Shown here piece after piece: positions 2,703 through 60,053 of a stretch of 64,000 nt of DNA (position 1 is its first letter; every line of letters begins with the position of its first letter). The stretch lies in contig JASGKO010000023.1 of NCBI GenBank assembly GCA_049840595.1, forward strand, positions 100,911 to 164,910. Direction: 5' to 3'. Under the pieces are notes generated by a model. That model did no database searches, was not told the DNA's origin, and was given only the letters and a program-made list of their open reading frames with translations. The DNA comes from Chthoniobacteraceae bacterium (GTDB taxonomy: Bacteria > Verrucomicrobiota > Verrucomicrobiia > Chthoniobacterales > Chthoniobacteraceae). Position numbers and translations under genes: made by a program.

Positions 2703-3823
2703 AGCTTTTTCTCGTCGCCGGCGAAGCCAGCGGAGACGCCCGCGCCGCCGAGCTAATGCGTAGCCTGCAGGAACTGCACGGCGACGGGCTGGAATTTCAC
2801 GGCCTCGGCGGCCCCCAGATGCACGCACTCTCGCAGGGCAACATCCGTGATTGGACCGATCGTGCGGGCGTGATCGGATTCATCGACGTAATCAAGAACT
2901 ACGGCTACTTCCAACGCGAATTCAACGCCGCACTGGCGGCGATCGAGCGGCTGAAACCGGAGGCGGTGATCTTCATCGATTACCCGGGCTTCAATCTCCG
3001 GATGGCCGCGGCGATCAAAGCACGCGCCCGGTCGCCGAAGGTGATCTATTACATCAGCCCACAAGTCTGGGCCTGGCATCGCAGCCGCATCCCAAAGATG
3101 GCGAAGACAATCGATCTGATGCTGTGCCTTTTCCCCTTTGAAAAGCCGCTCTACGAGCAATCGGGACTGCGCACCGAGTTCGTCGGCCATCCCATGCTCG
3201 ATTCGCTGCAGGCGAAGCGGATCGCCGGGCCGCGCGAGGAAAATCTCGTGGCGCTCCTGCCGGGGAGTCGCAAGCGCGAGGTGAAGAAGATTTTCCCCAC
3301 CATGCTCGCTACGGCCGCCCTGCTCCACCAACGTAAACCCGGCCTGCACTTTGCCGCTGCCGCGTCCTCGGAAAAAATGCGGGAGTTGATGCAGGAGGAA
3401 CTCGCCCAATATCCCGGTGTGCCGTGCGAAATCTCGCTGCGCAATGCCTACGATCTGATGCAGCGCGCCGCCGTGGGCATGGTCGCCAGCGGCACCGCCA
3501 CGCTGGAGGCCTGCTATTTCCGCCTGCCCTTTGCACTCGTCTATCGTGTGGCATGGCTCACCTATGAGATTGGACGCCGGGTCATCCGCGTGCCTTTCAT
3601 CGGCATGGCGAATATTCTCGCCGGACGTGAAGTCATCCGCGAATTCATCCAGAGCAATGCGCAACCGGAAGCGCTGGCCAATTACTTGCAGGGCTTGCTG
3701 GAAAAGCCCGAGACCCGCACCGCCCTGATCGCCGGAACCGACTCCGCGATTGCCACGCTCGGTGAAGGCGGTGCCGCCAAACGCGCGGCCGAAGCGGTGC
3801 TGAAAGAACTCAATCTTAATTAA
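2699..3823 (+). CDS. lpxB: Lipid-A-disaccharide synthase LpxB. The ORF track's long N-terminal extension from 2309 is rejected.
   Basis: N-terminus MKLFLVAGEASGD, then YISPQVWAW and SGTATLE motifs typical of LpxB (GT19). Confidence 0.9.
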   Translation: MKLFLVAGEASGDARAAELMRSLQELHGDGLEFHGLGGPQMHALSQGNIRDWTDRAGVIGFIDVIKNYGYFQREFNAALAAIERLKPEAVIFIDYPGFNLRMAAAIKARARSPKVIYYISPQVWAWHRSRIPKMAKTIDLMLCLFPFEKPLYEQSGLRTEFVGHPMLDSLQAKRIAGPREENLVALLPGSRKREVKKIFPTMLATAALLHQRKPGLHFAAAASSEKMRELMQEELAQYPGVPCEISLRNAYDLMQRAAVGMVASGTATLEACYFRLPFALVYRVAWLTYEIGRRVIRVPFIGMANILAGREVIREFIQSNAQPEALANYLQGLLEKPETRTALIAGTDSAIATLGEGGAAKRAAEAVLKELNLN

Positions 3824-5216: not shown

Positions 5217-6113
5217 ATGAAACACATTCGGTTCGGTTCGGTTTTGGCTGCAGCACTGGCACTCCTTATTCTGCCCGCTTTTGCGGATGACTCCGCCGTC
5301 ACCACCAAGGACGAAGCACAGGCGATCGTCTCCTCCCTGCGCCCGCAAAAGGGGAACATCGTGATCGGCAATGGGGTGGCCAAGCTGAACGTGCCGGAGC
5401 AGTTCGTCTATCTCGACAGTGCGGATGCGGACAGCATCCTCGTTCGGCTCTGGCACAATCCCCCGGGCACCAAGGTGCTGGGCATGCTCATGCCAGCCAA
5501 CAGCTCCCCCCTTTCCCCGGATAACTGGGCCGTCACGATCGAATACGAGGAGGACGGCTATGTGAAGGATGACGACGCGGGAAAGATTAATTACAACGAC
5601 CTGCTCAAACAAATGAACCAGGGCGCACAGGAGGCCAACGCCGAGCGTGAGAAGCAGGGCTATCCAGCAGTGCAAAACATCAGCTGGGCGGAAACCCCGA
5701 GCTACGACCAGGCAACGCACAAGCTCTACTGGGCCAAGGACATCAGCTTTGCCGGCGAGGAGGAGCATACGCTCAACTACAACATCCGCGTGCTCGGTCG
5801 CCGCGGCGTGCTGGTGCTAAACGCCATCGCCGGAGTCTCCCAACTCCCGGAAATCAAAAAATCGACCCCGCAGATTCTCTCGATGGTCGATTTCAACGAG
5901 GGCAGCCGTTACACCGATTTCAATTCCTCGACCGACAAGGTGGCTACCTATGGCATCGCCGCACTGGTGGCGGGTGGGGTAGCCGCCAAACTGGGCCTGT
6001 TCAAAGTGATCATCGCCGGGCTCATCGCGGCCAAGAAATTCGTCGTCATGGCCGTCGTCGCCGTCGTCGCTGCCTTCAAAAAGTTCTTCAAAAAGAAGGA
6101 ACCGATGGCCTAA
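5217..6113 (+). CDS. Secreted/membrane-anchored protein, DUF2167-like. N-terminal signal peptide, C-terminal double TM and a Lys-rich tail.
   Basis: Signal peptide MKHIRFGSVLAAALALLILPAFA; C-terminal hydrophobic helices then KKFFKKKEP. Confidence 0.5.
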   Translation: MKHIRFGSVLAAALALLILPAFADDSAVTTKDEAQAIVSSLRPQKGNIVIGNGVAKLNVPEQFVYLDSADADSILVRLWHNPPGTKVLGMLMPANSSPLSPDNWAVTIEYEEDGYVKDDDAGKINYNDLLKQMNQGAQEANAEREKQGYPAVQNISWAETPSYDQATHKLYWAKDISFAGEEEHTLNYNIRVLGRRGVLVLNAIAGVSQLPEIKKSTPQILSMVDFNEGSRYTDFNSSTDKVATYGIAALVAGGVAAKLGLFKVIIAGLIAAKKFVVMAVVAVVAAFKKFFKKKEPMA

Positions 6114-6149
6114 AGACTGTCGTCACGAGATTGATAGGGATGTTAAAGC

Positions 6150-6945
6150 TTGAGAAGTAGATGTCCTCTACTCTGGAAAAAACGATCCACCGCCCCATGA
6201 TCTACGTGATGAAGCTAGGCAGCTCCCAGAGACGCATCTTCCTAGTCGCAAAGGGGTCTGGGGCGGTTTAGCCAAAGACAACCGGCAGTTTATCAACGCG
6301 GTGCGGTGGATCTTACACACCGGGGCTCCCTAGTGGGATTTGCCGCCAGATTGTGGAGATTGGAAAAATACTCATCAGCACTTTTGCCGCTAGCGAGACA
6401 AAGATGAGTGGCTGGGCATTGACGCCAGTCATATCAAACTCCCCCTCATGCAACTAGGGCCGTCGGCGACAATCAAGCCATGGGGAAGGCTCAAGAGGGC
6501 TCAACCCCAAGATTCATCTGGCCGTGAATGTGCATGGTTTGCCGCTCCGAGTGCTTGTTACAGAAGCTGCCAGCGCGAATTGTGTCCAAGCGCTTCCTTT
6601 GATCGCAGGGATGGATGCCGATTGTCGGGTGGCTGATTGTGGGTATGATACCAATGCCATTCTCGCCCAAGCGCAAGCTCAAGGAATGGAGCCGGTTATC
6701 CCGCCCAGAAAACACCGCCTCTTTCTGCGGCCTTACGATCAGCACCCCTACCGACTGCGACATTTGGTCGAAAACGCCATTCTCCGACGCAAGGGCTGGC
6801 GCAGCATCGTCACCAGATACGCCAAGCGTAACTCCCCATCGTGCAAATCCGCTGCATGTCTCTTTAGCTTTCCATCTCGTAAAAAGAGAAAAAAAACTGA
6901 TAGGCAGGCTCACCTCTTGGAGAGGGAGTTTCAATTTGTCTAAAG
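6150..6945 (+). mobile_element. Decayed IS5-family (IS427/ISL2-like, DUF4096 + DDE) insertion sequence. The transposase is a pseudogene: no start codon, two in-frame TAG codons at conserved Trp positions, a frame change between the N- and C-terminal halves.
   Basis: Translation gives DNRQFINAVRWILHTGAP*WDLPPDCGDWKNTHQHFCR*RDKDEW, then in another frame GSRGLNPKIHLAVNVHGLPLRVLVTE...VADCGYDTNAI...RNLVENAI. These are hallmark IS5 transposase motifs. Confidence 0.75.
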
Positions 6946-7014
6946 ATGAGAGAGACAATCCTTCTGTGAAATTTTTGAGGGGAAAAGGGCGGGCTCTGGG
7001 GAAGCGGTGGAAAA

Positions 7015-7686
7015 TCAAGCTGATTGATGGCGTCGGACAAAATGCTCGGCGCGGCGGCGGAGATCGGCTGCTCCGGTGAGACCGAGCTTTTCCTTGATGC
7101 GTTTGTGGTAGGTTTCGACCGTTTTGATGCTGGTACCGAGTTTCATCGCTACAGTTGCCGTGGTCGCGCCAGCGCCGGTGAGCAGGAAGACCTCCGTCTC
7201 GCGCATGGAGAGGCTCGAGACAGGATGTGAGCGAAGTTGAAGCCCACCATCGGCCATTTTTTTTACCAGGACACCGGCGACCCGGCGGCTGGCAAACAGT
7301 TCTCCCTCGCCCACTCTTTTCAAAGCGTGCAGGACTTCGTCGGGCTCTTCCTGCTTGGAGACGTAGCCCCGGGCTCCCGCATTGAAGACGCGCTGGAGAG
7401 ACGCCGCATCCTCGAAGGCGGAGATGACCATGGAACGGCTGCGGGGGCTCAAAGCGGTGAAATCGCGCAGGATGCCAGGAACGGATGCAAATTGCTGATC
7501 GGCGTTCATGATAATGATCGCGGGTGACAGCTCTTGGCAGAGTCTTCTGGCGGTGCTGAACTCGCCCGTTTCCGCGCAAATTTCATAATGCCCATTTGCC
7601 CGGATGAGCATGGCAATGCCAAGCCTCATCAAAGGGTAATCACCGACCAGCAGCACGCGCTCTTTCACCGGGGTTTCCGAGTCCAT
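7015..7686 (-). CDS. Orphan LuxR/NarL-type response regulator (REC + HTH_LuxR) with Asn at the predicted phospho-acceptor position
   Basis: Receiver-domain layout (LLVGDYP...IIIMNADQQ...GYVSK) followed by a C-terminal LuxR HTH (LSMRETEVFLLTGAGATTATVAMKLGTSIKTVETYHKRIKEKL). No kinase gene adjacent. Confidence 0.8.
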   Translation of the reverse strand: MDSETPVKERVLLVGDYPLMRLGIAMLIRANGHYEICAETGEFSTARRLCQELSPAIIIMNADQQFASVPGILRDFTALSPRSRSMVISAFEDAASLQRVFNAGARGYVSKQEEPDEVLHALKRVGEGELFASRRVAGVLVKKMADGGLQLRSHPVSSLSMRETEVFLLTGAGATTATVAMKLGTSIKTVETYHKRIKEKLGLTGAADLRRRAEHFVRRHQSA

Positions 7687-8110
7687 AGATCATCTTGATT
7701 CTTTGGGAGTATAGGATGGAAGCGCCAAAATTTTCAAGTTGGAAAGTGGTCGCAAAAAGAAAGGAAGAGCCGGAGAAGGAGGGCATTTTTCCTGACAGCG
7801 GGTAGCTTGATTTATTGAAGAATTGAACGGAGCTGTCGGGTATTTTCACTGATTTTAGGGCTCGCTTTCCCGACAGGTGATGTCCTGAAAACCGATACTG
7901 GAAGCTGACGAGGAATTCGGGTCGCGGCCTGACAGACAGCCGTGAAATAACCTGCTGAGATGGCTGGATGCGAGGGCGAGAGCAGGAAAAAAATAAAAGT
8001 CTATTTTGGAAAACCTAAATCACGGCGCGAAGAATCGCTCTCCTCTCCAGAACCGCAACTTCCATTCACCAGTTCGCACCGTCATTCAACGCCAGGAAGA
8101 AAAACTCCCA

Positions 8111-8854
8111 TTATGAAAAACACGATTCTTTACTCTTCTCATTGCAGAGCCATTCGATCTGCAATTTTGTGCGGTTTGGCAATCTCAGCCGGCTTGGCCG
8201 GGGTGAGCTTCGGTTCGTGCAGATGGGATTAATGGCTCTTACACGATCGGGAGTGGAAATACGGCCAGTGGCACTGATTCGGTGGCGATCGGGCAAGGGG
8301 TTCAGGTTACTGGCAACTATTCATTGGGAGTGGGGCAGGATGTGATCGCAGGTGGTGATTTTTCGTTGGCGGCGGGAGGGTCCGAGGCTGACGGGGAGTT
8401 GTCGACGGCTTTGGGAGGCTCTTATGCGAGCAATTACGGCGCGACAGCTTTCGGAACCTCGGAAGCTGACGGACTATGTTCTGTAGCCGGCGGTGCTGCC
8501 GTCGCATCCGGCAATAATAGCGTGGCCTTTGGGAATACTTCAAATGCATCAGGTCCGTTAACATTCGCAATTGGAACTGCTGTCAATGCTACTGGGTATT
8601 ATTCCATGGCACTGGGATATCTTACAACGTCGCAGGTCTACCGTTCCACAGTGGTGGGTAGCTATAACAAATTGAGAGGGGGGAGTGCCAATACGTGGGT
8701 GGCGACGGATGATTTGTTTGTGATTGGCAATGGTTCGGGCTACGGCACAAATGCATATAGCAATGCCGTTGTCGTACGGAAAGATGGCGCAGTGCTGATT
8801 CACCCGACGGGAGACATCAGTATGGGTATTTTCGCCAATGGCGATCAACCTTAA
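8111..8854 (+). CDS. Secreted Hep_Hag/YadA-head-like repeat protein (adhesin-like), interrupted by a frameshift near 8205-8230
   Basis: Signal peptide MKNTILYSSHCRAIRSAILCGLAISAGLA in frame 1. Frame 2, open from 8207, has repeats of the SxAxGxxSxAxG type (NSVAFGNTSNASG, YSMALGY...). The frame-1 stop at 8230 overlaps the frame-2 open region. Confidence 0.55.
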
Positions 8855-8883
8855 GGCGGGCAAATCTTGAAACAACTCATTTT

Positions 8884-11203
8884 ATGAAACCGGCATTTAT
8901 GCGGTGCGGCGGGGTGGTTCAATTTTGGATTGCGATGGCTGGCCTATTTCTGGTGGCGACCGCAGCTCACGCCCAAGGGCCGAGTTGGTGGACTACACGT
9001 GGAGTTTTAACGCCGGGCGCGGTAGCGCAGGATTTTGGAGCGGCCAACCAAGGGCAGCTCAAAAACTTTGCCCAGGCAGCGATGTCGGAGATGAATGCAG
9101 ATCTCACCGGGGGGGCCGGAAATACCATCCCAACCATGATCAACGCATGGACAGGAAATAGCACCAATGCGCAGGACTTTTCGGCGGTGACGCTGGGGCA
9201 GTTGAAGGCGGTGACGCAGCCTTTCTATGATCGGCTGGCGACGGCGGGCTATGGAGGGGTGTATCCGTGGAGCGGGTCCACGATCCCCGCCAACGATTAT
9301 GCAATGGCGAATATTGGGCAGCTAAAGAACGCGTTTAATTTCTTTTTGCCAGGGACACAACCGATGGATGTGGTGTTTATTATTGATAATACGGGGTCCA
9401 TGGGTAATGCGATTAATGCGATAAAAAACATTGCATCCCCGGTGCTGCAAGGGATTCAGAACTCTTCTGGGAATAATTACAGAATCGGGGTGGTAGTTCC
9501 AGATACGGAGGATTGTGATGTGTTGTTATCCATGTCAGAGAATAATGGATCTGATTTTGAGACCGCTATGTCGAACCTTGAGATTGCACCTTACCCATCG
9601 GGTGATCATACCCCAGAAAGCACCTTGTTGTGTTTGCACAATGTGCTGAGATCTGGAGCGGGTGCATTCAGGTCAAATGTCGAGCGAATTATCATCTTGA
9701 TCACCGATGCCTTACCCAGTGGAACTGAGGTAAGTGTGGATCCTAGTGACTATGATGCGTTTAATGCGGCACCGTCATTTGATGGGAATGGATTTCCTAC
9801 TGCAGATCCGCCACCAATTAGCGGAAGGGTTGCTCCCTCGGTTGAATATTTGGCTTACCAAGAGGCTTTGTATGCCAAACAGCAAGATGCGATGATTGTC
9901 GCGATTGGAATTGTGGGAAGTCGGGATGATTATGGAGGAGGTTATGATCCTGACCCGGAGGCTGCTTTTATCAGGGTTATGAATAACTACTATTCCGGAA
10001 TCACGCATCAAAACAATCCCGCTACTACTTTTTTTAATCTGGATAATGCGAACGATGTAACTGGAGTATTGCTCTCGATGTTTGGGGATGTAAACGGATT
10101 TTTAACGGTTCCGGTTATCTCTCCTTCTGCGGAGTCCTTTGCGAATTCAGTCCAAGTAACGATAACAAGCACGGACTCGAATGAATCTATCTATTATACT
10201 ACAGATGGCTCCACTCCGAGTGCAACCCATGGCACATTGTATACGGGTGCAATCACTATTAGTGCCACTACGACGATCACGGCAGTCGGGTATAAAAACA
10301 GTTTTTATAGCAATGTCACAAGTTCTACTTTCACTCTGGAGCCGAAAACTGCTGCGCCATCATTTACTTATCGCAATACGTCGGTGACAGGAGGAAATTA
10401 TACAAGCGGCGGGAATATCGGTCTCGTTGCGGGGTCGGGAGCAACCATTCGATACACCACGGATGGCTCGACTCCATCTTTTGATGCAAACAATCCGGTG
10501 GGATTGGTGTATGATTCTTCCAATCCCTCAAATAATACGGGTTTGTCTAACTTGAACCCCGAAACGTTGACGGTTAAAGCCATTGCGCGAATTGCGGGCT
10601 ATTCTGACAGCGTGGTTTCTAATTTGTCATTAAATATCTATGCGTTGAGTATCACCTCCACTCCAAACTCTACTTCCGTAACTCTAACGGGTACAATTGC
10701 AACAGATTGGATTCACTGGGAAAATCCAACTTCAAATCCCTCTTTCAATCATAAAAAGTCTGGCTCCACCGCGGTAAATTTGATCACGAACTACACGGCA
10801 GCAGGCGCAACCAGTGCAGCCACTACGGCCCGAAAATTTTCGTGGTCAGATGGCACCCCCACCACAAGTGCAACCCTCGATGCACAGGCAGTTTCGGTGA
10901 TCGGAGCTGGAAATGGATTCAGCTTTTCCTTACCCTCGTATGCTACGCAACACACATTAAAGGTCTATGTGGATATGACGGGCGGAAGTACTGGGAATCC
11001 GGCGGCAGGGCTCGATTTCGGCCTCATTATCAGGAGATGCGAATACGAAAGTCAGCACCACGATCAGCACGACCTCCACAAGCTACTATTATATCACGAT
11101 TCCCTGCACCAATGTGGGAGGACAGACGCTCCAGATCAGTTGCAACGCAAATTCTACGGCAGGAATTTTGCGCCTGTGTGCGGCCCAGCTTCTGTCGAAT
11201 TAG
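8884..11203 (+). CDS. Large secreted protein with GQLK repeats, a VWA domain and chitobiase/hexosaminidase C-terminal-type beta-sandwich repeats. The 3' end is frameshifted near 10980-11040.
   Basis: Signal peptide; MIDAS-like DVVFIIDNTGSMG; repeated IYYTTDGSTPS / IRYTTDGSTPS motifs. After about 11030 the long ORF reads nonsense, while frame 2 gives a beta-rich tail ...SGDANTKVSTTISTTSTSYYYITIPCTNVGGQTLQISCNANSTAGILRLCAAQLLSN ending at 11203. Confidence 0.65.
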
Positions 11204-11686
11204 AGCATTTCGATTAATTCTAGAACCGCGTTTTGGCGAGTGGCGGCTATTTCAGAAACGGTGTTTCCTCCCAAAAGGTCATTCTGAGCGCAGCGGAGTC
11301 GAAGAATCTCTCGACTATTTCCGGGCGGGGCGAACGAGCATTGCCCTCCAGGCTCCAGAAATAGAGGGAGATTACGCTGCGTGCCGCAGCATGTCATTTT
11401 TGGGAAAGAATTTCCAACCGCTCGTGGCTATACCTTTTATTGAACCGCTCTAGCCCTTCTGAGCAAAGACAGGTTTATTTCACCCTCTAGGAGCAGCCTG
11501 AAGGGCGAAAAAACCAACGCAACCACACGGTTCCACGAGCCGCTCCATGGGCCGCCAAGAGAAGGACGGTTATTCCTCTCCAGCCCCATCGGCCCCCATT
11601 TACACAGGCCTCCTTTTGAGGACATTTTTTTGAAGAAAAAGACCGGCTTCCGTGTCCAATTCGATAATCCTTAAGGAGATTAACCA

Positions 11687-12214
11687 ATGAATACGAAGCC
11701 TCTTTTCCACACCATTCTGGCCGCTGCGGTCGCGCTGGCGCTCCCGGCGTTCGCCCTCGCCGATGGGCCTCGGGGTGATGGATTTCACGGCAGCGTTCGT
11801 GCCCAGCCCAATGCTCATGGACACCCGGAAAGCTTCCGGGATCGCGCCGATTTTCACCGTAGTCATGGGGACTACCCTGGTCGATATTATAGCGGTCGAT
11901 ATTATCACCATGGCCATTATTACGGTTATCGGGGCTACCCATACTGGGGATTAAACATCTATGATGGCCCGGTTTACTATTACAATGACGACGATGCCCC
12001 GGCCTACTACCAGGGCTCGGCAGTGGATGATGGTGACGTCACAGCCCGAGACGTCCAGGCCGCCCTTCGCAGCCGTGGCTATTACCATGGAGCGATCGAT
12101 GGCGACATTGGCCCGGCCAGCCGCGCGGCGATTCGGGCCTTCCAAGCCAGTCGCGGATTGCCGATTACCGGCGTGATCAATGATCGCCTGTTGCGTTCCC
12201 TGGGGCTGACCTAA
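11687..12214 (+). CDS. Secreted Tyr/His/Gly-rich protein with a C-terminal peptidoglycan-binding domain (PG_binding_1-like)
   Basis: Signal peptide; low-complexity HGHYYGYRGYPYW region; C-terminal GYYHGAIDGDIGPASRAAIRAFQASRGLPITGVINDRLLRSL. AAGGAG SD precedes the ATG. Confidence 0.7.
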   Translation: MNTKPLFHTILAAAVALALPAFALADGPRGDGFHGSVRAQPNAHGHPESFRDRADFHRSHGDYPGRYYSGRYYHHGHYYGYRGYPYWGLNIYDGPVYYYNDDDAPAYYQGSAVDDGDVTARDVQAALRSRGYYHGAIDGDIGPASRAAIRAFQASRGLPITGVINDRLLRSLGLT

Positions 12215-18926: not shown

Positions 18927-20061
18927 ATGTCCATCGACCTCCAAGCCATCAATACCGACGAGTTGAAATCCCGCGTGGGCGAGCTCCGGAGGTATCTTTG
19001 ACCTCGCCAAGCTGCAAACCCGCTTGAGCGAACTGGACGAGGCCATGTCGGCCGCCGATTTTTGGAACAACAAGGAAAGCGCGCAAGCCCAGGTGGAGGA
19101 ACTTTCCACCCTGCGGGCGAAGGTGAATCCCCTGCTCGATCTCGATCGCCAGGTTGGCGATCTGGAAGTGCTGAAGATGCTCGTGGAAGAGGAGCAGGAT
19201 GAAAGCGCGGTCAGCGATTTGAAAAAGGAATACGCGCAGGTGGAAAAAAGTCTGGCGGCCTTTGAGCTGCAGAGCCTGCTTTCCGGCCCGCAGGACAAGT
19301 TCGAATGCGTTCATCACCATTCATTCCGGCGCGGGCGGCACGGAATCGTGCGACTGGGCGGATATGCTGCTGCGCATGTACCAGCGCTGGATCGAGCGCC
19401 GCGGCTTCACAGCACCATGATTGACATTCAAGTCGGCGACGAGGCGGGGATCAAATCCGCCACGCTGCTGGTCGCAGGAAACTATGCTTTCGGCTATCTT
19501 GCCACCGAGCGCGGCGTGCATCGCCTGGTGCGCATCTCGCCCTTCGATGCGAACAAGCGGCGGCATACCTCGTTCGCGAGCATGGATATCGTGCCGGAAA
19601 TTGCCGATGACGCGCCGATTGAAATCAACCCGGCGGATATCGAACTGGACACCTACCGCGCGGCGGCAAGGGCGGCCAGAACGTGAACAAGGTGGAAACC
19701 GCCGTGCGCACTCATCCACATGCCCACCGGCATCATCGTCGCCTGCCAGGCCGAGCGCAGCCAGGGCCAGAACAACCGCGAGCTGGCGATGAAGATGCTC
19801 AAGGCCAAGCTCTACCAGATCGAGCAGGACAAGAAGCGCGCCGAGATCGAGCGGCAGTATGGAGAAAAAGGCGACATCGCCTGGGGCAGCCAGATCCGCA
19901 GCTACGTCTTCCAGCCCTACCAGATGGTGAAGGACCACCGCACCGGCGTCGAGACGAGCAACGTGCAGGCGGTGATGGATGGGGACATCGATGAATTCAT
20001 CGAAGGCAAGCTGCGCGGATGGACGGCGAAGAAGGGCCAGCAGAGCGACGACGACGTGTAG
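18927..20061 (+). CDS. prfB: Peptide chain release factor 2 (prfB) with a programmed +1 frameshift at CUU UGA C (18996-19002). There are also two apparent non-programmed frame changes around the GGQ motif (about 19660-19715).
   Basis: Frame 0 reads [24 protein letters not shown] then TGA; the +1 frame continues [16 protein letters not shown]... as RF2. [16 protein letters not shown] is readable only in a third frame; [14 protein letters not shown] and the C-terminus are in the 19720-20061 ORF. Confidence 0.9.
18988..19002 (+). promoter_or_regulatory. RF2 autoregulatory programmed +1 ribosomal frameshift site: internal SD-like GGAGG, then TAT CTT TGA C
   Basis: Exact match to the canonical prfB recoding cassette (SD-like element 3 nt upstream of CUU UGA C). 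Confidence 0.85.
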
Positions 20062-20069
20062 GCCGGGGA

Positions 20070-20121
20070 CGAGGCTGGAGCCTCGCAGACAATGGCGTTA
20101 CCAGGCTGGAGCCTGGTAACG
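20070..20121 (+). terminator. Tandem GC-rich hairpins after the prfB stop, each with loop TGGA: cgaggc-tgga-gcctcg and cgttaccaggc-tgga-gcctggtaacg. Putative terminator; also part of a repeated module.
   Basis: Perfect 6-bp and 11-bp stems by reverse-complement inspection. The same module recurs at about 23461-23515 and 24171-24230. Confidence 0.55.
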
Positions 20122-20129
20122 AGGGGGCG

Positions 20130-20531
20130 TCAGTAGCCCAAAATCGGTGGATAGCTTGAGAAAAATGAAGGTCCTGCTTCTGTTTCTTCTACAACTACCG
20201 TGATGGTCTTTGCTTTTCGGATTTCTTGTATTAGCAGTAGCGTAGCGATGGTTCGAAAATCCCGAGAATTTGCCCCGGCGCTAACCTCATATTCGTTCCC
20301 ATCCACGGCGAAGGAAACTTCGCCATTGTATAAGTCAGCCTTCAGATTTTTGAGCCCAACCGCTGACAATTCTTTTTGAACATTCCCGGCTTGCGCAGCC
20401 GTTAAGACAAACAGCGGGCTAAACAAGATCGACAGGAGTAAGGCTGTTTTCCGTAGCTCGAAAAACGATCCCCATGCTGTCGCTGTCTTTTCCCGTGCAA
20501 AAAATATTTTGGGAGCCAAGTTAGTTTTCAT
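20130..20531 (-). CDS. Small hypothetical secreted/membrane-anchored protein in lower-GC DNA
   Basis: 133-aa ORF with hydrophobic segment LLLSILFSPLFVLTAAQA. Flanked by prfB-end repeat copies A and D. Confidence 0.45.
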   Translation of the reverse strand: MKTNLAPKIFFAREKTATAWGSFFELRKTALLLSILFSPLFVLTAAQAGNVQKELSAVGLKNLKADLYNGEVSFAVDGNEYEVSAGANSRDFRTIATLLLIQEIRKAKTITVVVEETEAGPSFFSSYPPILGY

Positions 20532-20564
20532 CGTTTTTTTATAAAAAAAGAATGCGCCCTCTTC

Positions 20565-20618
20565 AAGCTGCGCGGTTGGACGGCGAAGAAAGGTCAGCAG
20601 GGCGACGATGATGTGTAA
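20565..20618 (+). repeat. Degenerate third copy of the last ~17 codons of prfB ([17 protein letters not shown] then TAA), without the hairpins
   Basis: About 90% identity to 20007-20061 (aagctgcgcgg.tggacggcgaagaa.gg.cagcag.gcgacga.ga.gtgta.). Confidence 0.6.
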
Positions 20619-20756
20619 GAAGCGGTGAAAGCCATTCCTCGCAAAGGTAATCCGAAGGTTACGCAGCTTTTAAAAGCAGGGAGGAAATCATCCTTTTATT
20701 CGCCCTGCTTTTGATTGTCTCCATCGGGGCATTTTTTGCGACCTGACTCCTATAGT

Positions 20757-21494
20757 TTACTTCTGCAACGCAGCTTCTGCCGCGAAGTGGCCAGCAAGCT
20801 GGGTTACAAATGTTTTCAGGCTCGTCAGCTCTGAAAACTCTACATATTTGCCTGTCCTGGCCGTTGATCTTGGCGAAGTAATGAAGGCCGCCGAGGTATA
20901 GAGGTTTTCCTTTACCAGCTTCTGACAAAGAAGGTTATAACGGTCGGCATAGGAACAGTCGGAGAATTCTTTGAAAACTGGGAAATGGGGAGATCGATCT
21001 TTGACTGGAGTTCGCGAGGCCGGACAATCTTCGATGAGCATGAGCCAGCCAAGGAATGGCTTGGTATGGTTGCCGAGCGCACCTTCGCGGAAGGCCGTCA
21101 ACAGATCTACGGCAGAGCCAATCGCCTCCTCCGTGCGGTTGTTGAAGTTGTTACCAAAGCTGCCGACCTGGCTCTTCATTTCAATAACAGCCACCAATCG
21201 CCCGTTATTCATCACGACCATGTCCCACTGCTTGGTTGGGCGAAAATAGCCGGGAAGGGTCACGACACCCTTGTTAAGACAAATCTGAGCATGCGTAAGG
21301 CCATTAGCTTTAACCAGATCGCCGATCAAAACGAGGAACCCGTCCATGTTTTTACCCGCAGTCACCGCGCCCCGACTCCCGGCATCCAGTTTACCAGCCT
21401 GCTCCTGCTTCTTGAGGGCAGCGGCGCGGTTCCCCCAAAATGCTTGCACTGCTTCGGTGGCTTTTACCTCGTAGTTGGCTAAATCGAGTGGCAT
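20757..21494 (-). CDS. Putative type II restriction endonuclease (PD-(D/E)xK fold; size and pairing resemble the XhoI/PaeR7I family)
   Basis: 245 aa. Candidate catalytic motif D(91)...VIEMK. Immediately downstream of, and co-oriented with, an N6-adenine MTase (5-bp gap). Low-GC island. Confidence 0.55.
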
Positions 21495-21498
21495 ACTT

Positions 21499-23169
21499 TT
21501 AGTGTCCTAACCAAATACGCTCCTCCGAAGTGAGCCGGTAGAGCTCGAAAACAGCTTCATTTGCCATCGACTGATCACCATTTCTACCTGCAGAAATGAG
21601 TTGCTCCTGAATTTTTAAGGGGACCGAATTCCAAAATGGAATTCTGATTCGGCGAAGATATTGCGCTTGGAACCTTAGAAATCCACCGGCCATCTGCACC
21701 GAATAGGTGGAGACAAAAAGCGCCGCAATCCCTGATCGCAGCACCGCCTGGAGGGCATGCAAATCCCATATATCGGATGTAATGAAATAAAGATTGTGGT
21801 GGGGATATAACTTGCCGGATTCATAAACCACATGTGCTTTCCCTTTGATGTCCGGAATGAGGAGCTTGGGTCGCCGAGTCAGTGAGGACGTGATTTTATC
21901 AATGGTCCGATACCAGCGTCGTTCGTCACGTTGGGCGCAATTTCTTCTGCGAAGAATCCCGGCATGCATTTCAAAATAAGCCTTCAATTTCGGATATTTG
22001 TCCAAGTCCACCAGTTGTCCATCCTCTGAAAATGGATTCACCACGCCTTTGCCGGTCCATTCAACATTATCCCCAATGATGTCTTTGGTGACAGCCAGCG
22101 GAAGTTTTCGATCCTCCTCGACGGGGAGTTCGTTGTAGTCACTGACGTAAACCTTGTCTGCGCCGGTCGCCACCCCGATTCCCACTTTGCAGCCAGCTTC
22201 TTCGAGAGTAGGCAATTCGGACTCCAGCCTTCGGACAATGGAAACCTGATCCAGCCCTTGTAAAATCCACGGTTCCTCATCATCCGCCACCTCATCTACT
22301 CGTTGAACCGATGGATGATTACTTCTCCCTTGAAGGGCGGGCACCAATTCCGAAAGTGCACGAGCCTCGACAACTGGTCGATGCGCAACATACGTCACCG
22401 ACTTGGGCTCTCGCTTGATGAGAGTGATTGCCGGGTAAGCCAACACGTCGGACAAAAACGCATCGGTATTAACCATGTCCACATAGGCCATGAGGTGAAA
22501 GCGCTCGGAAATCATCCGCCGGAGGGCCGAACCGTATTTGTTCTTCATCCACCGGTCCGCACAGATAAAACAAAGCACTCCCCCCGGTTCCAGCGAGTTC
22601 AACCCTTTTTCAATGAAAGGAACGTAGAGATCGGCACGATCATACATCGTGGAAAAGCGGTCTCGATATTCAGCCAATAACACAGGCGAAATCGACTCCT
22701 GTCGGACATAGGGCGGATTACCAACCACGTGAGTAAATGATCCGCCCAAGAACGTTAGTAGAAAATCTCCTTCAATCACCCATGCCAGCGCCAACTCCAG
22801 AGCGTCGGTTTCCGAGAAGCCATTTTCGACAAGGAGCGTTTTAACCTTTTCTCGCGTCTTTCCACAGGTTTCGGAATGCACTTCCACAGATCGAATTGCA
22901 TGTTTCAGATCATCCGTCACTTCGTTTACGCCATGCAAAGACGCAAGCAACCGCTCAACGGCGGGTAAGAGAAAGTCTCCCTCGCCAACACTCGGTTCCA
23001 GGAGTCTCAGCTTGGCCAAATCCTGATCGCTGGTGTAACCCGAGAGGTCCAGGATGAAATCAACCACTGCCCTTCGGGTGAAAATCGCGCCACGTGCTTC
23101 ATTGCCTGACCTCGAAAGCTCAGCCAAAGCCGCTTCCAAGGCAGGTGTGGAGCAAAGAAGATCAAGCAT
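21499..23169 (-). CDS. N6-adenine-specific DNA methyltransferase (gamma-class, TaqI/Eco57I-like) with a C-terminal target-recognition region
   Basis: Motif [17 protein letters not shown], motif [12 protein letters not shown], motif IV VVGNPPY, in the gamma-class order. Confidence 0.85.
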
Positions 23170-23315
23170 GTGGAGCAGCTCAATTCTGTTCCGATAGCTC
23201 GGAAAAGCAAGCCTGGCATCGGGAGAAAAAAACGCGACCGCATGGAAGGGAAATACCGGTGGGGAATGCGATGCGATTTTGCAGGAAAAGGCGACGCTTT
23301 TTATATGGCACCAGA

Positions 23316-23515
23316 GTGAAGGACCACCGCATCGGCGTCGAGACGAGCAACGTGCAGGCCGTGATGGACGGCGACATCGACGAGTTTATCGAAGGCAAGC
23401 TGCGTGGGTGGACGGCGAAGAAGGGGCCGCAGAGCGACGACGACGTGCAGGCGCGGGGACGAGGCTGGAGCCTCGCGGACCACGGCGTTACCAGGCTGGA
23501 GCCTGGTAACGAGGG
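23316..23515 (+). repeat. Diverged duplicate of the last ~44 codons of prfB ([44 protein letters not shown]; stop mutated to CAG) plus the dual TGGA-loop hairpin module
   Basis: About 90% nt identity to 19925-20125, with mostly synonymous third-position differences. Confidence 0.8.
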
Positions 23516-23533
23516 AGGGAACGAATGCTGTTA

Positions 23534-24025
23534 CTAGTGGACAGCTTGAGATGGCGGGCTGCCAGCCGCTGCCGCCGGGACCGCAGTAACATTGAAAAGG
23601 GCACCATCCTTTAGCCCGAGAATCATCGTGATGCTACTCGGACCGGAAGTTTTAAATGAGAGGGATGAGGACGGTTTGAAATGGATCACGAGTTCGATGA
23701 CGGGCGGCAGGTTCGGCACGTAGGCGACACCTTTGAGCGTGTAGCCCTTGGCTGCGGTGGCTTCAACTGGTGCAAATTCTGCATTGGAATACTCGCCCTT
23801 GAGCATTTCCGGGATCGCATATTTCTCCAGATTGTTTCGCACCCTTGGGGCCGTGCCGTCGAGGCAATAAAGCTTCTCGATGGCAGCGGCATCCTTTGCC
23901 TTAAAAGCCGACTCTACCTGGGCCAGAAATGCCGCCTGCTGCGGGCCGGTCGGTTCCAGCGAAGGATTGGTGGCCAGTCCAAAATCGCCACTAAGCAGGA
24001 GGAGAAAGAGGGGAAAATATTTCAT
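23534..24025 (-). CDS. Small hypothetical secreted protein (signal peptide MKYFPLFLLLLSGDFGLA)
   Basis: 163-aa ORF from ATG 24025. The ORF track extends further upstream, antisense into repeat C. Sits between repeat copies B and C. Confidence 0.5.
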   Translation of the reverse strand: MKYFPLFLLLLSGDFGLATNPSLEPTGPQQAAFLAQVESAFKAKDAAAIEKLYCLDGTAPRVRNNLEKYAIPEMLKGEYSNAEFAPVEATAAKGYTLKGVAYVPNLPPVIELVIHFKPSSSLSFKTSGPSSITMILGLKDGALFNVTAVPAAAAGSPPSQAVH

Positions 24026-24140
24026 CGATTTTTGTGAAAAAGGAAACCGCACTCGCCAAGGCAAACCAGCCAGCATCTCGTGCAAAGAAATAACGCCATG
24101 TAAACAGGGAGTAAAGCGCCAAGAATCGGCTCCCGCGCGG

Positions 24141-24230
24141 CAACAGAGCGACGACGACGTGTAGGCGCGGGGACGAGGCTGGAGCCTCGCGGACCGTGGC
24201 GTTACCAGGCTGGAGCCTGGTAACGAGGGG
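24141..24230 (+). repeat. Fourth copy of the prfB terminus (QSDDDV, TAG) plus dual hairpin module
   Basis: Near-identical to 20041-20127. Confidence 0.8.
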
Positions 24231-24292
24231 GGTGCTCTTCGCATCGCTATTCGAGTTGGAACTATTGAACGTGGCCTGCTAGAGAGGAAGGC

Positions 24293-24694
24293 ATGCGGTA
24301 TTACTTACTGGTGATGGGGCTGGGCATGATTGGCATGGCGATTTGGCTGGGGTGGCAGTCGCTGACCTTCATTCGGCGGACGCGCAAGACCGATGGGGTT
24401 CTGACCGGGTGGAATGAGACGCCGAAATTCAACCAACCGGGTATCGTTTACTATTATGCGGTGGTCTCGTATGAGGCTTTCGATGGCACGCAGCATCAGG
24501 TGACCAGCGAGATCGGCTGTCATCCGAAGCCGAAGGTGGAAATCGGCCATCGATATCCGGTGCGTTACAACCTGAGGAATCCCGAGGAGGCCCGCCTCGA
24601 TACGCTGGCGAACCTCTGGGCTCCGGCCGCGGGGTTTTTCGTTTTGGGCAGCGGGGTGATCCTGGCCTTTCTGCATCCTTCGCATCATCATTGA
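24293..24694 (+). CDS. DUF3592-like small membrane protein (TM, beta domain, TM)
   Basis: Two hydrophobic helices flanking a soluble segment; typical size for this family. Confidence 0.5.
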   Translation: MRYYLLVMGLGMIGMAIWLGWQSLTFIRRTRKTDGVLTGWNETPKFNQPGIVYYYAVVSYEAFDGTQHQVTSEIGCHPKPKVEIGHRYPVRYNLRNPEEARLDTLANLWAPAAGFFVLGSGVILAFLHPSHHH

Positions 24695-24748: not shown

Positions 24749-26439
24749 GTGGGCGTGGAAGTAACGCAGTCGATTTCGCCCCCAACCAGCTCGCTTTTTT
24801 CCCGGCGGGCTGTTCGCATTCTGTTGATTGTGCTCGTGGGGCTGGCGGCGCAGGGGCATTGCCTGTGGTCCACCTTTTATCTCGACGATACGTGGCAGGT
24901 GGAGAACTCGGAGGCGGTGGAGGGCGGGCAGTGGTGGGCTGATCTGGTCAATTTGCTGCCGAATGCGAGCTACTACTTTACGTGGAAGTTTTTTGGATTT
25001 TCGGCGCCGATTTTTCATCTGGAGAATTTGCTGCTGCACTTGCTGGTGGCGCTGTCGGTGTATGGCTGGCGCGCTATTTCATGGCGCTGGGGAGCGGGGA
25101 GGAATCGGAGCGGTGGGAGAACGCGGCGTGGCTGGCGGCGCTGATTTTCGCAGTGCATCCGCTGACGACGGAGATGACCAACTATGTGCGGGCGCGGGAT
25201 CATGGGCTGGTGACGCTCTTTTCGCTACTGGCGGGGGGCTGCACGCTGCTGGCCCTGCAACGGCGCTGGCTGTGGGCGCTGGCGGCGCTGCTGGCCGTAG
25301 TGCTGGCGACGATCTCGAAGGGGCCGGGGCTGCCGCAGGCGCTCTGCAACTGCCTCGCGGTGGTGGGGGCGTATTGCTGGCTGCGCGGGTGGAAGGGCCT
25401 GCGGATTTCGTGGCCGGTGGGGCTGGCCGTGGGAGCGGCTGCGGGGCTGGTCTTCGCGGTGGCGTTCGGGCACATCCGGTATCTTTGGACCGTGCTGGCG
25501 GGGCAATTCGCGAATCCGCAATTTGGGTTGCATGCGCTCACGCAGTGCCGGGTGTTTCCGCAATACCTGCTGCGGATGGTGTGGCCGGTCGATCTGTGCT
25601 CGGATCACCTGGTGGCGTGGACGAAGGATTACGCCGATCCCACGGCGTGGGTCTATGTGGCGGGGGTGGTGGCGGTGCTGGGCGTGCTGGCTTTTCTCGG
25701 CCTGCGCAAGCGGCAGCCGTGGGCCCTGCTGCTGGGGCTGGCGCTGGCGCCGCTGCTGATGCGCTGGCTGTACCTGGTGAGCGAGTTGATGGTGGAATAT
25801 CGCACTTATCCCTGCCTGCCCTTCGTGGCGATGCTGATGGCGGTGGCGGTGCAGCGCTGGCTTCGCAAACAGCCCCGGGTGGCATGGGGCGTGGCCGGGA
25901 CGGTGCTGGTTTTCTTTTCGGCCCTCACTTTCCAGCGCAGCCTCGACTGGCGCAGCACGGATGCGCTTTGCACGCAGATCAGCACCCTTTATCCGCTGCA
26001 TTTGCGCGAGATGAATGAACGCTCGACGTGGGATCTCGATGCGGGACGCTACGAGGCGATTCTGGACCGGTATCCGGGATTTCTGGCCACGCTGAACAAG
26101 GTGATGGATTACAACCGCTCGACGCCGCATCGCTATTACGACAACTGGCCGCTGTGCGTGGTGAATGAGGAGTGCATGGTCTCCGAGGCGATGGCGCACG
26201 TGAAATCGAAGTGGGATGGGCAGGCGCATCTGGACCTGACCGCCTGGCGAATGCTGCAAAATCACATCTATCACCCCGGGCTGTGGGCGCAGTGGCATTA
26301 CTCGGCGGGGAACATTGCGCTGCTGGAGGGGGATGAAAAAAGCGCGCTCCAGCATTACTTGAATGCGCGGGCTTACATCGCGACGCCGCTGCTGGTGGAC
26401 CGGCAGATTGCGAAGATCGTGCCGGGGTATGGGCGATAG
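24749..26439 (+). CDS. TMTC/PMT-like (DUF1736-type) polytopic membrane protein with a C-terminal soluble region; frameshifted near 25070-25100
   Basis: GTG start. N-terminal region YYFTWKFFGFSAPIFHLENLLLHLLVALSVYGW is typical of DUF1736/TMTC. It continues in another frame (ORF 24982-26439) with AAWLAALIFAVHPLTTE. Confidence 0.6.
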
Positions 26440-57953: not shown

Positions 57954-58980
57954 GTGAAGTTTTCCCCGCTCCGCCCTGTCTTTCTCGCTGCCTGCTTTTT
58001 GCTGGCCGGAAAAGGATACGCGGATGACTACCTGCTCGGAGCCGATCTTTCGAGCACGCCCCAGAGCGAAGCACGCGGGGTGAAATTCTCCGCCAACAGG
58101 ACGTCGAACGATCTCCTCCACCTGCTGCACGAGCACGGGTTCAATTGGGTGCGGCTGCGTATCTTCCATGATCCAAAGGCTGCAGGCGGCTATTCGCCAG
58201 AGGGCTACTGCGACCTCGGGCATACGCTGGCGATGGCCCGCCGAATCCGATCGGCAGGCATGAAGCTCCTGCTCGATTTCCATTACAGCGACACGTGGGC
58301 CGATCCGGCCCACCAGACCAAGCCGGCCGCTTGGAAGGACAAGCACGGCCGGGAATTGGAAACCGCCGTCCACGACTACACCGCACACGTCCTTACGGCC
58401 CTGAAAAAACAGGGCACCCCACCCCGACCTGGTGCAAACCGGCAACGAGATCGGCCATGGCTTGCTCTGGCCCGACGGCCAGCCCTGGAAGGGCGGAAGC
58501 TGGGATGCCTTCACCGGTTTGTTGAAGGCCGCAATCCGCGCCGTTCGTGAAACGACGCCCCAGGCCAGGGTGATGCTCCACGTGGAAACCGGCGGGCGTA
58601 ACCGGGAAACACGCGAGTTCTTCGACCACCTCCGGGAACATCACGTCGCTTTCGACGTGATCGGCCTGTCATACTACCCGCGCTGGGATGGTCCGTTGGA
58701 AAACCTGCGGCAAAACCTCGCCGATCTCGCCACCCGCTACCCGCAGCCCATCGTGGTCGTGGAATACAGCGCGCCGCAACTGCGCGAGATCAACGATGCC
58801 GTCCACTCCCTCCCCCATGGAAAGGGCCTCGGCAGTTTCATCTGGGAACCCGCGCACTGGGGCGGCCCCGCCCTTTTCCAGAAAGACGGCCGGGCCAGGC
58901 CCGCGCTGGAGCTTTATCCGCAAATGGCGAAGGACTACGGACGGCGCAGAGGTCGTTCGCTGCAGCGCATAGATAGTTAG
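57954..58980 (+). CDS. Glycoside hydrolase family 53 (endo-beta-1,4-galactanase), frameshifted at the C/A homopolymer region about 58404-58425. Its 3' end runs into the attC-like repeat.
   Basis: Signal peptide. GH53 motifs FNWVRLRIF and DLVQTGNEIG (second ORF, 58432-58980). Confidence 0.7.
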
Positions 58981-58988
58981 GCCACAGG

Positions 58989-59312
58989 CTATCCACCGCG
59001 CTCATCATACCACCCCTGCGGGTCATCAAGATCAATATCCTCTCCTTCTTGCATGTCGCCCAGGTGCCAGCCCTCTCGCTTGCAGAGTGCCGCCAGTTCT
59101 TTGATGTGGTTGAAGCCGCCGTGCGTGTAAATGTCCTGAACTGTCTCGTCCTCTGTGGTCAGCTCCAGACGGAATCCGCCTTCAACGGGCAACGCCGCCT
59201 CAGTGAGTGACTCCCACTCAAGTCCGCGAAATGCACCATCGAACTTGCGTGTGACATCAGCGATCTCGCCAAGCCCCTCTCCGTCATTGTGGACAAGAAG
59301 ATTCCAAGACAT
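58989..59312 (-). CDS. Small acidic hypothetical protein, integron cassette-like ORF
   Basis: 107-aa ORF. On its coding strand it is bounded by GTTAGGC 13 nt upstream of the ATG and GCCTAAC 6 nt after the stop. Confidence 0.4.
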   Translation of the reverse strand: MSWNLLVHNDGEGLGEIADVTRKFDGAFRGLEWESLTEAALPVEGGFRLELTTEDETVQDIYTHGGFNHIKELAALCKREGWHLGDMQEGEDIDLDDPQGWYDERGG

Positions 59313-59321
59313 AACGTGTGA

Positions 59322-59388
59322 TGTAGCCTAACAACCCAAGCTCGGCGACAGGCGCAAGCCTGTTCGCTGCAGCGTCTAGGCGTTGCAG
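59322..59388 (-). repeat. attC-like imperfect palindrome. Cassette-strand sequence: cctgcaac GCCTAGAC gctgcagcgaacagg cttgcg cctgtcgccgagcttggg tt GTTAGGC.
   Basis: Canonical core GTTAGGC (plus strand shows GCCTAAC at 59326-59332). Imperfect inverted repeats with unpaired bases. The internal box gttcgctgcagcg recurs at 58949-58961 beside a plus-strand GTTAGGC (58976-58982). Confidence 0.45.
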
Positions 59389-59825
59389 GGATCGGATTTT
59401 GGTGGTTCATGGACTGCGAGGAAGAGTGTCGGGGCACCGGGAACGCGAAAGATGCCAATTGCACGAAGACAGCGGACTGCCAACGCCGAAAATACCTGCG
59501 CGTCGCTGTCAGATGCAGCGATGCCGGGGCTGGTGAAGACGCGAAAACCCGTGAGGTTCTGGAGTGACTGGAGACTCTTCGAAGCCTCACGCGCGCGAAG
59601 CGGAAAATCCTCATTGGCCCACGCCCACAGCCAGGAGTGGCGCTCAGGGCTGTGCGTGCCGATGGGTGTGATCGGGAAGGAATGATCTCCGATCCGCAAC
59701 GTGCAATCGGCAAGATCGTAGTGCCACTGGTCGCTACCGAGAATTCGCTGCTGGAATCGCGGTTGGAGGTGTGCAAGTTCGTCACGGCAGGCAGCAACGA
59801 ACGCGGAAAACTGCTCGTCCGACAT
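59376..59825 (-). CDS. Hypothetical protein, first integron cassette-like ORF
   Basis: 149-aa ORF from ATG 59825 (the ORF track extends antisense into the integrase fragment). Its stop codon lies inside the attC-like element. Confidence 0.4.
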   Translation of the reverse strand: MSDEQFSAFVAACRDELAHLQPRFQQRILGSDQWHYDLADCTLRIGDHSFPITPIGTHSPERHSWLWAWANEDFPLRAREASKSLQSLQNLTGFRVFTSPGIAASDSDAQVFSALAVRCLRAIGIFRVPGAPTLFLAVHEPPKSDPCNA

Positions 59826-59924
59826 GGAGCTTGATGTCGGCGACGTGCTGCAAACAGGACAATTGGAAGCGTCGTGCATCAGATACGGGTAGCAGCGCCT
59901 TGCGAGAAGTAGCTCCCAAAAATA

Positions 59925-60020: not shown

Positions 60021-60053
60021 AGCCTGACCTGCCGGAGATGGTCGCACCCTTGA

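Follow-up and report, generated by a model that had tools for sequence, protein, structure and literature searches.

The 3′ end of prfB, the gene for release factor 2 (RF2), was analysed in a 64-kb stretch of DNA from a soil metagenome-assembled genome (MAG) of the Chthoniobacteraceae (Verrucomicrobiota); this whole stretch is called the window, and its positions are used throughout. The prfB 3′ end is present four times, always in direct orientation, as the native end and as relics of 54, 142 and approximately 23 nucleotides (nt), and three low-GC cassettes with minus-strand genes (20130-20531; 20757-21494 together with 21499-23169; 23534-24025) sit between the tail copies. We judge, with a confidence a little above even, that the prfB stop region is a serial, integrase-independent, homology-anchored insertion hotspot of the class “insertion with long target duplication”, which supports the serial insertion hotspot at the prfB 3′ end proposed in a preliminary description of this DNA. 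This kind of insertion is known; what is new here is that it occurs in three layers and is not limited to restriction-modification (R-M) cargo, and no new mobile element is described. The gene and the copies of its tail are as follows.

18927-20061, plus strand: prfB, release factor 2 (sequence reading, open reading frames (ORFs), RF-1 domain by Pfam)
19927-20061, plus strand: T1, native functional last 45 prfB codons with a TAG stop, the reference copy (repeats, blastn, codon comparison)
20564-20618, plus strand: T2, relic covering the final 18 prfB codons, with a TAA stop of its own and no module after it (repeats, blastn, codon comparison)
23316-23450, plus strand: T3, relic of the last 45 prfB codons, stop changed from TAG to CAG (repeats, blastn, codon comparison)
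24141-24164, plus strand: T4, relic of the last approximately 8 prfB codons including the TAG (repeats, blastn, codon comparison)

Repeat finding and blastn confirmed the four tail copies of the preliminary description and their positions. With the native end (19902-20141) as the blastn reference, identity was 92% over 200 nt for 23316-23515 (E = 2e-72), 95% over 88 nt for 24144-24231 (E = 3e-34) and 89% over 54 nt for 20564-20617 (E = 1e-11). Single-base indel differences among the repeat copies were given no weight, as the assembly is unreliable in this respect. The point inside the prfB tail at which homology begins varies by relic, at -54 in T2, -142 in T3 and -23 in T4, and the region common to all four copies is only the last approximately 23 nt of prfB. 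Within these last 23-24 nt, T2 differs from T1 at 5 positions and T3 differs at 1-2.

Compared to T1, T3 carries 9 synonymous and 3 non-synonymous codon differences, one of the latter being the altered stop, while T2 carries 6 synonymous changes (including the change from TAG to TAA) and 1 non-synonymous change, which gives 15 synonymous versus 4 non-synonymous codon changes when both relics are pooled. According to our own estimate, the synonymous share would be approximately 25-30% under random non-coding decay and approximately 40% for an in-situ duplicate compared to an evolving functional copy, and 15 of 19 is very unlikely under either process. Because the changes are almost only synonymous, the relics are read as former working prfB ends; their codons indicate that the relic tails diverged under purifying selection in related lineages and are not local duplications. 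The GC content at third codon positions (GC3) was 12/18 in T2 compared to 17/18 in T1 and T3, and this low value matches the adjoining low-GC R-M cassette, which supports an arrival of T2 together with the R-M cargo. The two relics on either side of the R-M pair, T2 and T3, have different codons at 10 of 19 positions; given also the distinct GC3 of T2, they are not two copies of one duplicated target. The same lineage-specific 17-residue tail peptide is encoded by T1, T2 and T3 and shared by none of seven relatives, suggesting that the donors were close relatives, separated by a synonymous distance that we put at roughly 0.3. Overall, the synonymous bias of the divergence and the match between T2 and its cargo in GC3 substantiate the earlier idea that incoming DNA brought its own replica of the prfB end, and the mostly synonymous changes and mutated stop codon already noted for the copy at 23316 were found again.

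The cassettes between the tail copies comprise the following features.

20128-20563, minus strand: cassette 1, one ORFan gene at 20130-20531 (ORFs, Pfam; GC 0.45)
20619-20756, no strand assigned: spacer ‘x’ after T2, without similarity to the hairpin module
20757-23169, minus strand: cargo of cassette 2, a complete type II R-M pair (Pfam, PADLOC)
20757-21494, minus strand: XhoI-family endonuclease (Pfam; PADLOC REase_II 1-243/247)
21499-23169, minus strand: Eco57I/TaqI-type N6-adenine methyltransferase (Pfam; PADLOC MTase_II 14-557/563)
23170-23315, no strand assigned: non-coding region upstream of the methyltransferase gene, right end of cassette 2 (sequence, ORFs)
23519-24140, minus strand: cassette 3, gene at 23534-24025 (ORFs, Pfam; GC 0.55)

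The three cargoes are compositionally foreign. Their lower GC, already remarked on, held in a GC check with 0.45-0.55 for the inserts compared to 0.60 for the window and 0.60-0.67 for the flanks, and ORFs, Pfam and PADLOC likewise agreed with the earlier statement that all genes between the copies lie on the minus strand. Each cassette opens with the usual follower of the prfB stop (the module described below, or a terminator region) and then carries a gene convergent with prfB; no common motif was found at the three cassette right ends. The cassette 1 gene encodes a protein of 133 amino acids (aa) with a hydrophobic N-terminal segment, its ATG lies only 32 nt from the start of T2, and a homologue search returned the gene itself (QM796_09120) as the sole match. 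Spacer ‘x’ contains terminator-like hairpins at approximately 20672-20712 and 20716-20731, the latter followed by a T-run, and is probably the 3′ untranslated region of the donor’s prfB and of the endonuclease gene. The R-M insert as a whole (20619-23315; 2.7 kb) holds only the endonuclease gene, the methyltransferase gene and non-coding DNA, with no mobility gene. The cassette 3 protein is 163 aa long, starts with MKYFPLFLLLL and has a signal-peptide-like N-terminus (the NCBI version, QM796_09140, has 183 aa); beyond itself, a single homologue was found, which is 48% identical and lies in an unrelated context without prfB or the module.

Insertion of R-M gene complexes with long target duplication, a name given by Kobayashi’s group, was reportedly described by Nobusato et al. 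in 2000. The prfB locus resembles such insertions in having a low-GC R-M pair without a mobility gene at a gene 3′ end, between similar but non-identical repeats longer than 30 bp. Furuta, Abe and Kobayashi (2010; PMC2853133) described R-M insertions with non-identical direct repeats of 46-420 bp that overlap gene 3′ ends, again without mobility genes, and the mechanism is thought to be homologous or break-induced recombination, mostly in competent species (PMC2853133). Of their criteria, homologues of both the endonuclease and the methyltransferase, an insert below 20 kb without other mobility genes and direct repeats above 30 bp are found for cassette 2: both genes are full length, the insert measures 2.7 kb, and the repeats are T2 with 54 nt and T3 with 142 nt (200 nt with the module). 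The prfB locus departs from the class in that it stacks three units, with R-M genes in cassette 2 only; in that the insertions lie at the end of a gene essential for translation; and in that the repeats are different alleles, as judged by synonymous divergence and GC3, so that the “duplication” is imported rather than local.

A parallel was found at loci with homologous R-M genes. The XhoI-type endonuclease family has more than 529 confirmed metagenome relatives, with the methyltransferase gene upstream in 77 of the 80 loci retained, and a few of the 52 loci with usable flanks have flanking direct repeats. At locus L156, an R-M pair (endonuclease 66% and methyltransferase 55% identical) lies between two alleles of the 3′ end of a DsrE-like gene (1-149 and 2853-2981), which differ at 5 sites, all of them third codon positions, and by an in-frame 24-nt indel. 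Finding this signature at another gene speaks against an integrase specific to prfB and in favour of a general process driven by homology. A second locus, L171, is a 3.6-kb contig with the methyltransferase gene, the endonuclease gene and a ThiS-like gene, and has 116-nt repeats at both ends (1-116 and 3531-3646; 99% identical). It could represent a tandem array or a circular form of the R-M unit, or the contig could simply break at a repeat.

Copies 1, 3 and 4 of the prfB tail are directly followed by a dual-hairpin module, which is absent after copy 2.

20066-20127, plus strand: M1, dual-hairpin module with the short hairpin at 20070-20085 and the long one at 20096-20121 (repeats, folding)
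23455-23518, plus strand: M3, dual-hairpin module with the short hairpin at 23460-23475 and the long one at 23486-23511 (repeats, folding)
24169-24232, plus strand: M4, dual-hairpin module with the short hairpin at 24174-24189 and the long one at 24200-24225 (94% identical to M3)

The short hairpin reads cgaggc-TGGA-gcctcg and the long one cgttaccaggc-TGGA-gcctggtaacg; both fold as drawn, with z-scores of -2.6 to -4.0. The long hairpin can also be written in a 10-6-10 form, CGTTACCAGG CTGGAG CCTGGTAACG, which would be a Xer/dif-like layout. No exact hairpin core was found elsewhere in the 64 kb (chance expectation 0.1-0.15 matches), and a variant module at 60318-60377, 36 kb from the array, brings the number of modules in the window to four. 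T1-M1 and T3-M3 remain homologous for approximately 40 nt past the module, where two unrelated ORFs, read in different frames, have their 3′ ends. This stretch includes the 15-mer GTGGATAGCTTGAGA (= GTGGAYAGCTTGAGA) at 20147-20161 (plus strand), which recurs in the same register at 23537-23551, approximately 27 nt past M1 and M3, and GTGGAYAGCTTGAGA had no other occurrence in the window or in 129 further loci.

Among species-representative genomes, the 20-nt core of the module, TACCAGGCTGGAGCCTGGTA, gave at least 126 matches in at least 119 loci and was identical in at least six phyla among the matches listed. The listed carriers include Cyanobacteria (Microcoleus, Nostoc, Stigonema and others), Verrucomicrobiota (Chthoniobacteraceae, Spartobacteria), Planctomycetota, Salinibacteraceae, Calditrichaeota and a deltaproteobacterium. 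More than one locus per genome is seen in several cases: the complete chromosome of Microcoleus GLPB has at least 5, and Chthoniobacteraceae SMAG_U5969 and Verrucomicrobiota ELA550 have 3-4 each. In 100 of the 126 listed matches, the core is accompanied by another small GC-rich hairpin no more than approximately 30 nt away, the flanks GCGT ... ACGAG are present in 79 of these 126 copies, and stem variants such as TCCCAAGC/GCTTGGGA retain pairing through compensatory changes. Inverted doublets of approximately 170 nt, which resemble repetitive extragenic palindromic (REP) doublets forming hairpins (REPINs) or miniature inverted-repeat transposable elements, are frequent in Verrucomicrobiota, Planctomycetota and Cyanobacteria (L010, L024, L037, L078, L108 and many cyanobacterial loci); the three prfB modules are singlets. 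Of the 119 module loci listed, one contains prfB as well, with the module on the upstream side of the gene. An Rfam search of the locus returned no family at E ≤ 5, and a literature search with the hairpin sequence strings returned only unrelated primer matches and no description of the repeat. Viral contigs contained neither the prfB tail nor the hairpin core, which lends no support to a phage attP.

Since the module is multi-copy across phyla and missing from copy 2, it is not prfB-specific but a passenger, a dispersed REP/REPIN-like repeat that happens to lie downstream of prfB in this clade. The preliminary description had treated the module as part of one repeat unit with the prfB end, which the dispersal of the repeat, its absence from copy 2 and the variant 36 kb away contradict. 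It had also named a genome-wide REP-like element unrelated to prfB as the finding that would speak against its reading; this holds in part, for the module. The module shares with REP sequences, bacterial interspersed mosaic elements and REPINs the short GC-rich extragenic hairpins, the many copies per genome, the position between convergent genes, the inverted doublets and the compensatory stem changes. It differs from them in having no GTAG or CGTC tag by inspection (compare PMC3733652) and in a core that is identical over at least six phyla, while REP families are usually lineage-specific.

Two further observations were made on the module. In 28 of the 126 listed copies (L004, L006, L011, L017, L026 and other cyanobacterial loci), the arrangement of flanks and small hairpin is reverse-complemented but the long hairpin keeps TGGA as its loop sequence, so that the loop is oriented independently of the module, in a flip/flop-like manner. 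At locus L085, from another Chthoniobacteraceae MAG, a minus-strand gene and a module lie between 84-nt direct repeats (117-200 and 1345-1428; 92% identical). These bracketing repeats are a different hairpin-containing repeat, and an additional degenerate module lies close by.

A recombinase that might have assembled the array was sought in the 64-kb window. None of approximately 50 ORFs scanned across it encodes an integrase, resolvase or transposase according to Pfam, and tblastn found no catalytic domain. The window does contain an N-terminal SAM-like fragment of an integron integrase at 60054-60320 (plus strand), which corresponds to positions 1-72/315 of TIGR02249, lacks the catalytic domain and ends exactly at the variant module at 60318-60377. 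The earlier statement that the window has no integrase thus holds for an intact enzyme and needs to be amended for this truncated fragment. The fragment belongs to a degenerate chromosomal integron at 58900-60400 with two minus-strand ORFs upstream of the fragment, one encoding DUF6882 (59376-60050) and one of 107 aa (58989-59312). Behind the DUF6882 ORF lies an attC-like site that has both cores, GCCTAAC ... GT(C)TAGGC (approximately 59316-59376), and behind the 107-aa ORF only an R''-type core, GCCTAAC, at approximately 58985, apparently curtailed by the neighbouring gene.

For comparison with relatives, six genomes were used whose RF2 C-terminus is 79-91% identical and whose flanks are not syntenic with the window. 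All six have one prfB tail and no module, a short-word blast found no tail relics in them, and no annotated integrase lies within 8-10 kb of their prfB. Immediately downstream of prfB, five of the six carry a convergent neighbour, namely a PIN toxin-antitoxin pair, a LysM gene, a PAP2 gene or, twice, an M10 peptidase gene; in the remaining relative, the neighbour encodes a periplasmic-binding protein and is co-directional. What follows prfB is thus variable across the family, and none of the other genomes sampled has the stacked array. A search for a same-genus or same-species genome for an empty-site comparison found none. The long-target-duplication criteria (PMC2853133) also ask for an empty site in a related genome, where one copy of the repeat aligns with both flanks; the six relatives offer a single tail but no syntenic flanks.

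Based on these data, the array could have formed as follows. Each cassette would arrive from a related lineage together with that lineage’s prfB terminus. The incoming DNA would pair with the conserved prfB gene as an anchor, and the donor end would become the functional prfB end, while the heterologous far end would join inside the resident prfB tail, at -23, then at -142 and then at -54. The previous prfB end would thereby be pushed downstream and persist there in truncated form. Cassette 3 probably arrived first, the R-M cassette second and cassette 1 last, with T4-M4 as the original resident end. The join itself may have been made by illegitimate ligation, as in homology-facilitated illegitimate recombination, or through one homologous crossover that integrated a circularised unit with its tail copy. 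Homology-facilitated illegitimate recombination is said to have been described during natural transformation by de Vries and Wackernagel in 2002 and by Prudhomme et al. in 2002. It resembles the proposed events in its one-sided anchor in a conserved gene, the arbitrary nearby far join and the lack of a dedicated recombinase, but classic events usually delete recipient DNA, whereas here the join falls inside the anchor and yields a duplication. The circular route corresponds to the “release and reinvade” cycle hypothesised by Kobayashi’s group (PMC2853133).

Several points weigh against this homology-anchored insertion. The boundaries of all three cassettes are intergenic, just upstream of an intact gene or operon and without gene fragments, which favours discrete mobile units, since genes would frequently be interrupted by illegitimate joins at random points; such tidy boundaries could alternatively stem from selection or subsequent trimming. 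Like integron arrays and accreted elements, the cassettes also share one orientation. Strand-topology reasoning is the basis for supposing that homology-facilitated illegitimate recombination may yield a duplication instead of a deletion, and a literature search for cases giving duplications found nothing useful. The donor arrangement was not observed: a metagenome scan for DNA encoding a 13-residue tail peptide gave 0 hits, as did the tail peptide pattern in viral collections. Moreover, the recombinase search covered the 64-kb window of a 165-kb contig, and a trans-acting enzyme could lie elsewhere in the MAG.

An alternative explanation is site-specific accretion, in which three small integrase-less elements, comparable to cis-mobilizable elements or integron cassettes, were inserted one by one by a tyrosine or serine recombinase acting in trans, at a core in the last approximately 23 nt of prfB and with an attP that supplied the replacement end. 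The main argument for it is that the units are complete genes with clean intergenic boundaries in one orientation; direct repeats also bracket each unit, the replicas keep the frame and carry synonymous changes as in elements that integrate into gene 3′ ends, the last approximately 23 nt are common to the four copies, and an integron-type integrase was once present in the genome, as its remnant attests. We nevertheless consider accretion unlikely, if well short of negligible. No recombinase was found in the approximately 50 ORFs or near prfB in the six relatives, the three cassettes have no conserved arm or end motif, homology lengths vary threefold to sixfold, strand exchange in a common core would be impeded by the 5 mismatches between T2 and T1 within the last 24 positions, viral contigs are devoid of prfB-tail sequence, and a prfB-specific enzyme cannot explain the allelic gene-end duplication around homologous R-M genes at the DsrE-like gene. 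The analogy to islands that carry an integrase, drawn in the preliminary description, is accordingly weakened by the lack of an integrase and of a shared end motif, by the differing boundaries and by the same pattern at the DsrE-like gene. Accretion of cis-mobilizable elements (CIMEs) and other integrative elements at the 3′ ends of protein genes is known from ICESt3-type elements at fda in streptococci. The prfB array resembles it in its serial co-oriented units, its att-like direct repeats of a gene 3′ end and a functional end derived from the latest arrival, but there is no integrase or remnant of one in or near the units, which are 0.5-2.8 kb long with a single gene or operon each, the repeats are variable and there is no common end sequence. 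We see a slight chance that the last approximately 23 nt of prfB are the attachment site for tiny integrase-less cassettes circulating among close Chthoniobacteraceae, an integron-like capture platform that would be driven by a recombinase encoded elsewhere or by host recombination on excised circles, with the hairpin repeat aiding excision or termination.

The remaining explanations fare worse. If the resident tail had been copied on the spot, for example at a staggered break, and had then diverged in place, the 54-142 nt direct repeats around the R-M pair would fit the formal definition of a long target duplication (PMC2853133), and the 99% identity of the 116-nt repeats around the homologous R-M genes of L171 would be in keeping with it. 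However, non-coding relics should decay at all codon positions, while 15 of the 19 changed codons are synonymous, and T2 and T3 differ at more than half of their shared codons, with a distinct low GC3 in T2; such in-situ duplication is very improbable. An assembly artefact, by which strain variants with different genes after prfB were concatenated, could be suspected from the error-prone MAG assembly (homopolymer indels in prfB, in 24749-26439 and elsewhere) and from the array being seen in no other genome. This we hold to be equally improbable, as the junctions enter the prfB tail internally, where graph paths would rejoin at downstream DNA, and this would be needed three times; in addition, the 4.3-kb array is short enough for single long reads to span, and the same architecture is present in an independent assembly, L156. 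Least probable of all, and barely worth entertaining, is an integron-like or REP-mediated array in which the modules serve as recombination sites, either attC-like or as substrates of REP-associated tyrosine transposases (RAYT/HUH), and the prfB tail is an accidental passenger. On the minus strand, two of the three cassettes have a module after their 3′ end, in attC-like placement, the module family is structurally conserved with compensatory stem variants, and a degenerate integron lies 36 kb away. Against this, copy 2 is without a module, the module has GTT...AAC polarity and no RYYYAAC/GTTRRRY cores, differing from the attC-like sites at 58.9-59.4 kb, it is elsewhere an ordinary dispersed intergenic repeat that does not flank cassettes (with prfB in a single listed locus), and the in-frame, synonymously diverged prfB codons stay unexplained. 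A cassette array recombining at the palindromes, offered as an alternative in the preliminary description, fails for the same lack of attC cores and because only approximately 23 nt of prfB are common to the copies. Compared to integrons and clusters of attC sites lacking integron-integrases, the array is similar in its small co-oriented, mostly promoter-poor ORFan cassettes, including R-M genes, with a structured repeat after each. It differs in that the repeat is a piece of prfB with or without a REP-like module, that the module (CGTTACC...GGTAACG) has the opposite polarity and perfect stems, and that there is no attI or intI at the array, the sole intI fragment lying 36 kb away in a remnant with its own attC-like sites at 58.9-60.4 kb.

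Homology-anchored insertion at prfB would make an essential conserved gene a landing pad for accessory and defence genes without dedicated mobile-element machinery. The displaced prfB ends would be readable as strata, in which synonymous differences and GC3 assign each layer to a different related lineage. An imported allele instead of a local copy, both here and at L156, narrows the mechanisms for a class of R-M mobility that has been unexplained since 2000. The cross-phylum hairpin family without an Rfam entry is perhaps the more novel by-product and may merit separate study.

The quality of the sequence differs between genes. The prfB gene has a programmed +1 frameshift (CTT TGA C at 18996-19002, with GGAGG upstream at 18988-18992), and the RF-1 domain lies downstream of the frameshift site; the RF2 of relatives carries PCRF and RF-1 domains. 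Further indels of homopolymer type at 19290-19720 split prfB into at least four frames, and the NCBI MAG has an annotated 113-aa RF2 C-terminal fragment (100% match). A downstream membrane-protein gene (24749-26439) is likewise split, with indels at 25060-25080, while the low-GC cassette genes are intact. The extra prfB indels look like sequencing or assembly errors of an error-prone long-read assembly and were treated as such because prfB is essential. The first gene after the array is the following.

24293-24694, plus strand: gene with a borderline DUF3592 match, GC 0.58 (ORFs, Pfam)

Two possible marks of the R-M system were considered and rejected. CTCGAG, the site expected for an XhoI-type enzyme, occurs 6 times in the window compared to approximately 25 expected, but this avoidance is unspecific, as GTCGAC (1 compared to 15 expected) and GGATCC (3 compared to 10) are equally depleted. 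The presence of CTGGAG in the loops of the hairpins next to a methyltransferase with an Eco57I-type domain was judged a coincidence, since the partner endonuclease is of XhoI type.

Cumulative GC skew showed no switch at the prfB array. A second low-GC stretch of the window, at 6000-12000 (0.46-0.55), encodes a 777-aa VWA / CHB_HEX_C / Fn3-associated surface protein, a YadA-head-repeat protein and a LuxR-type response regulator, and may be a further acquired region.

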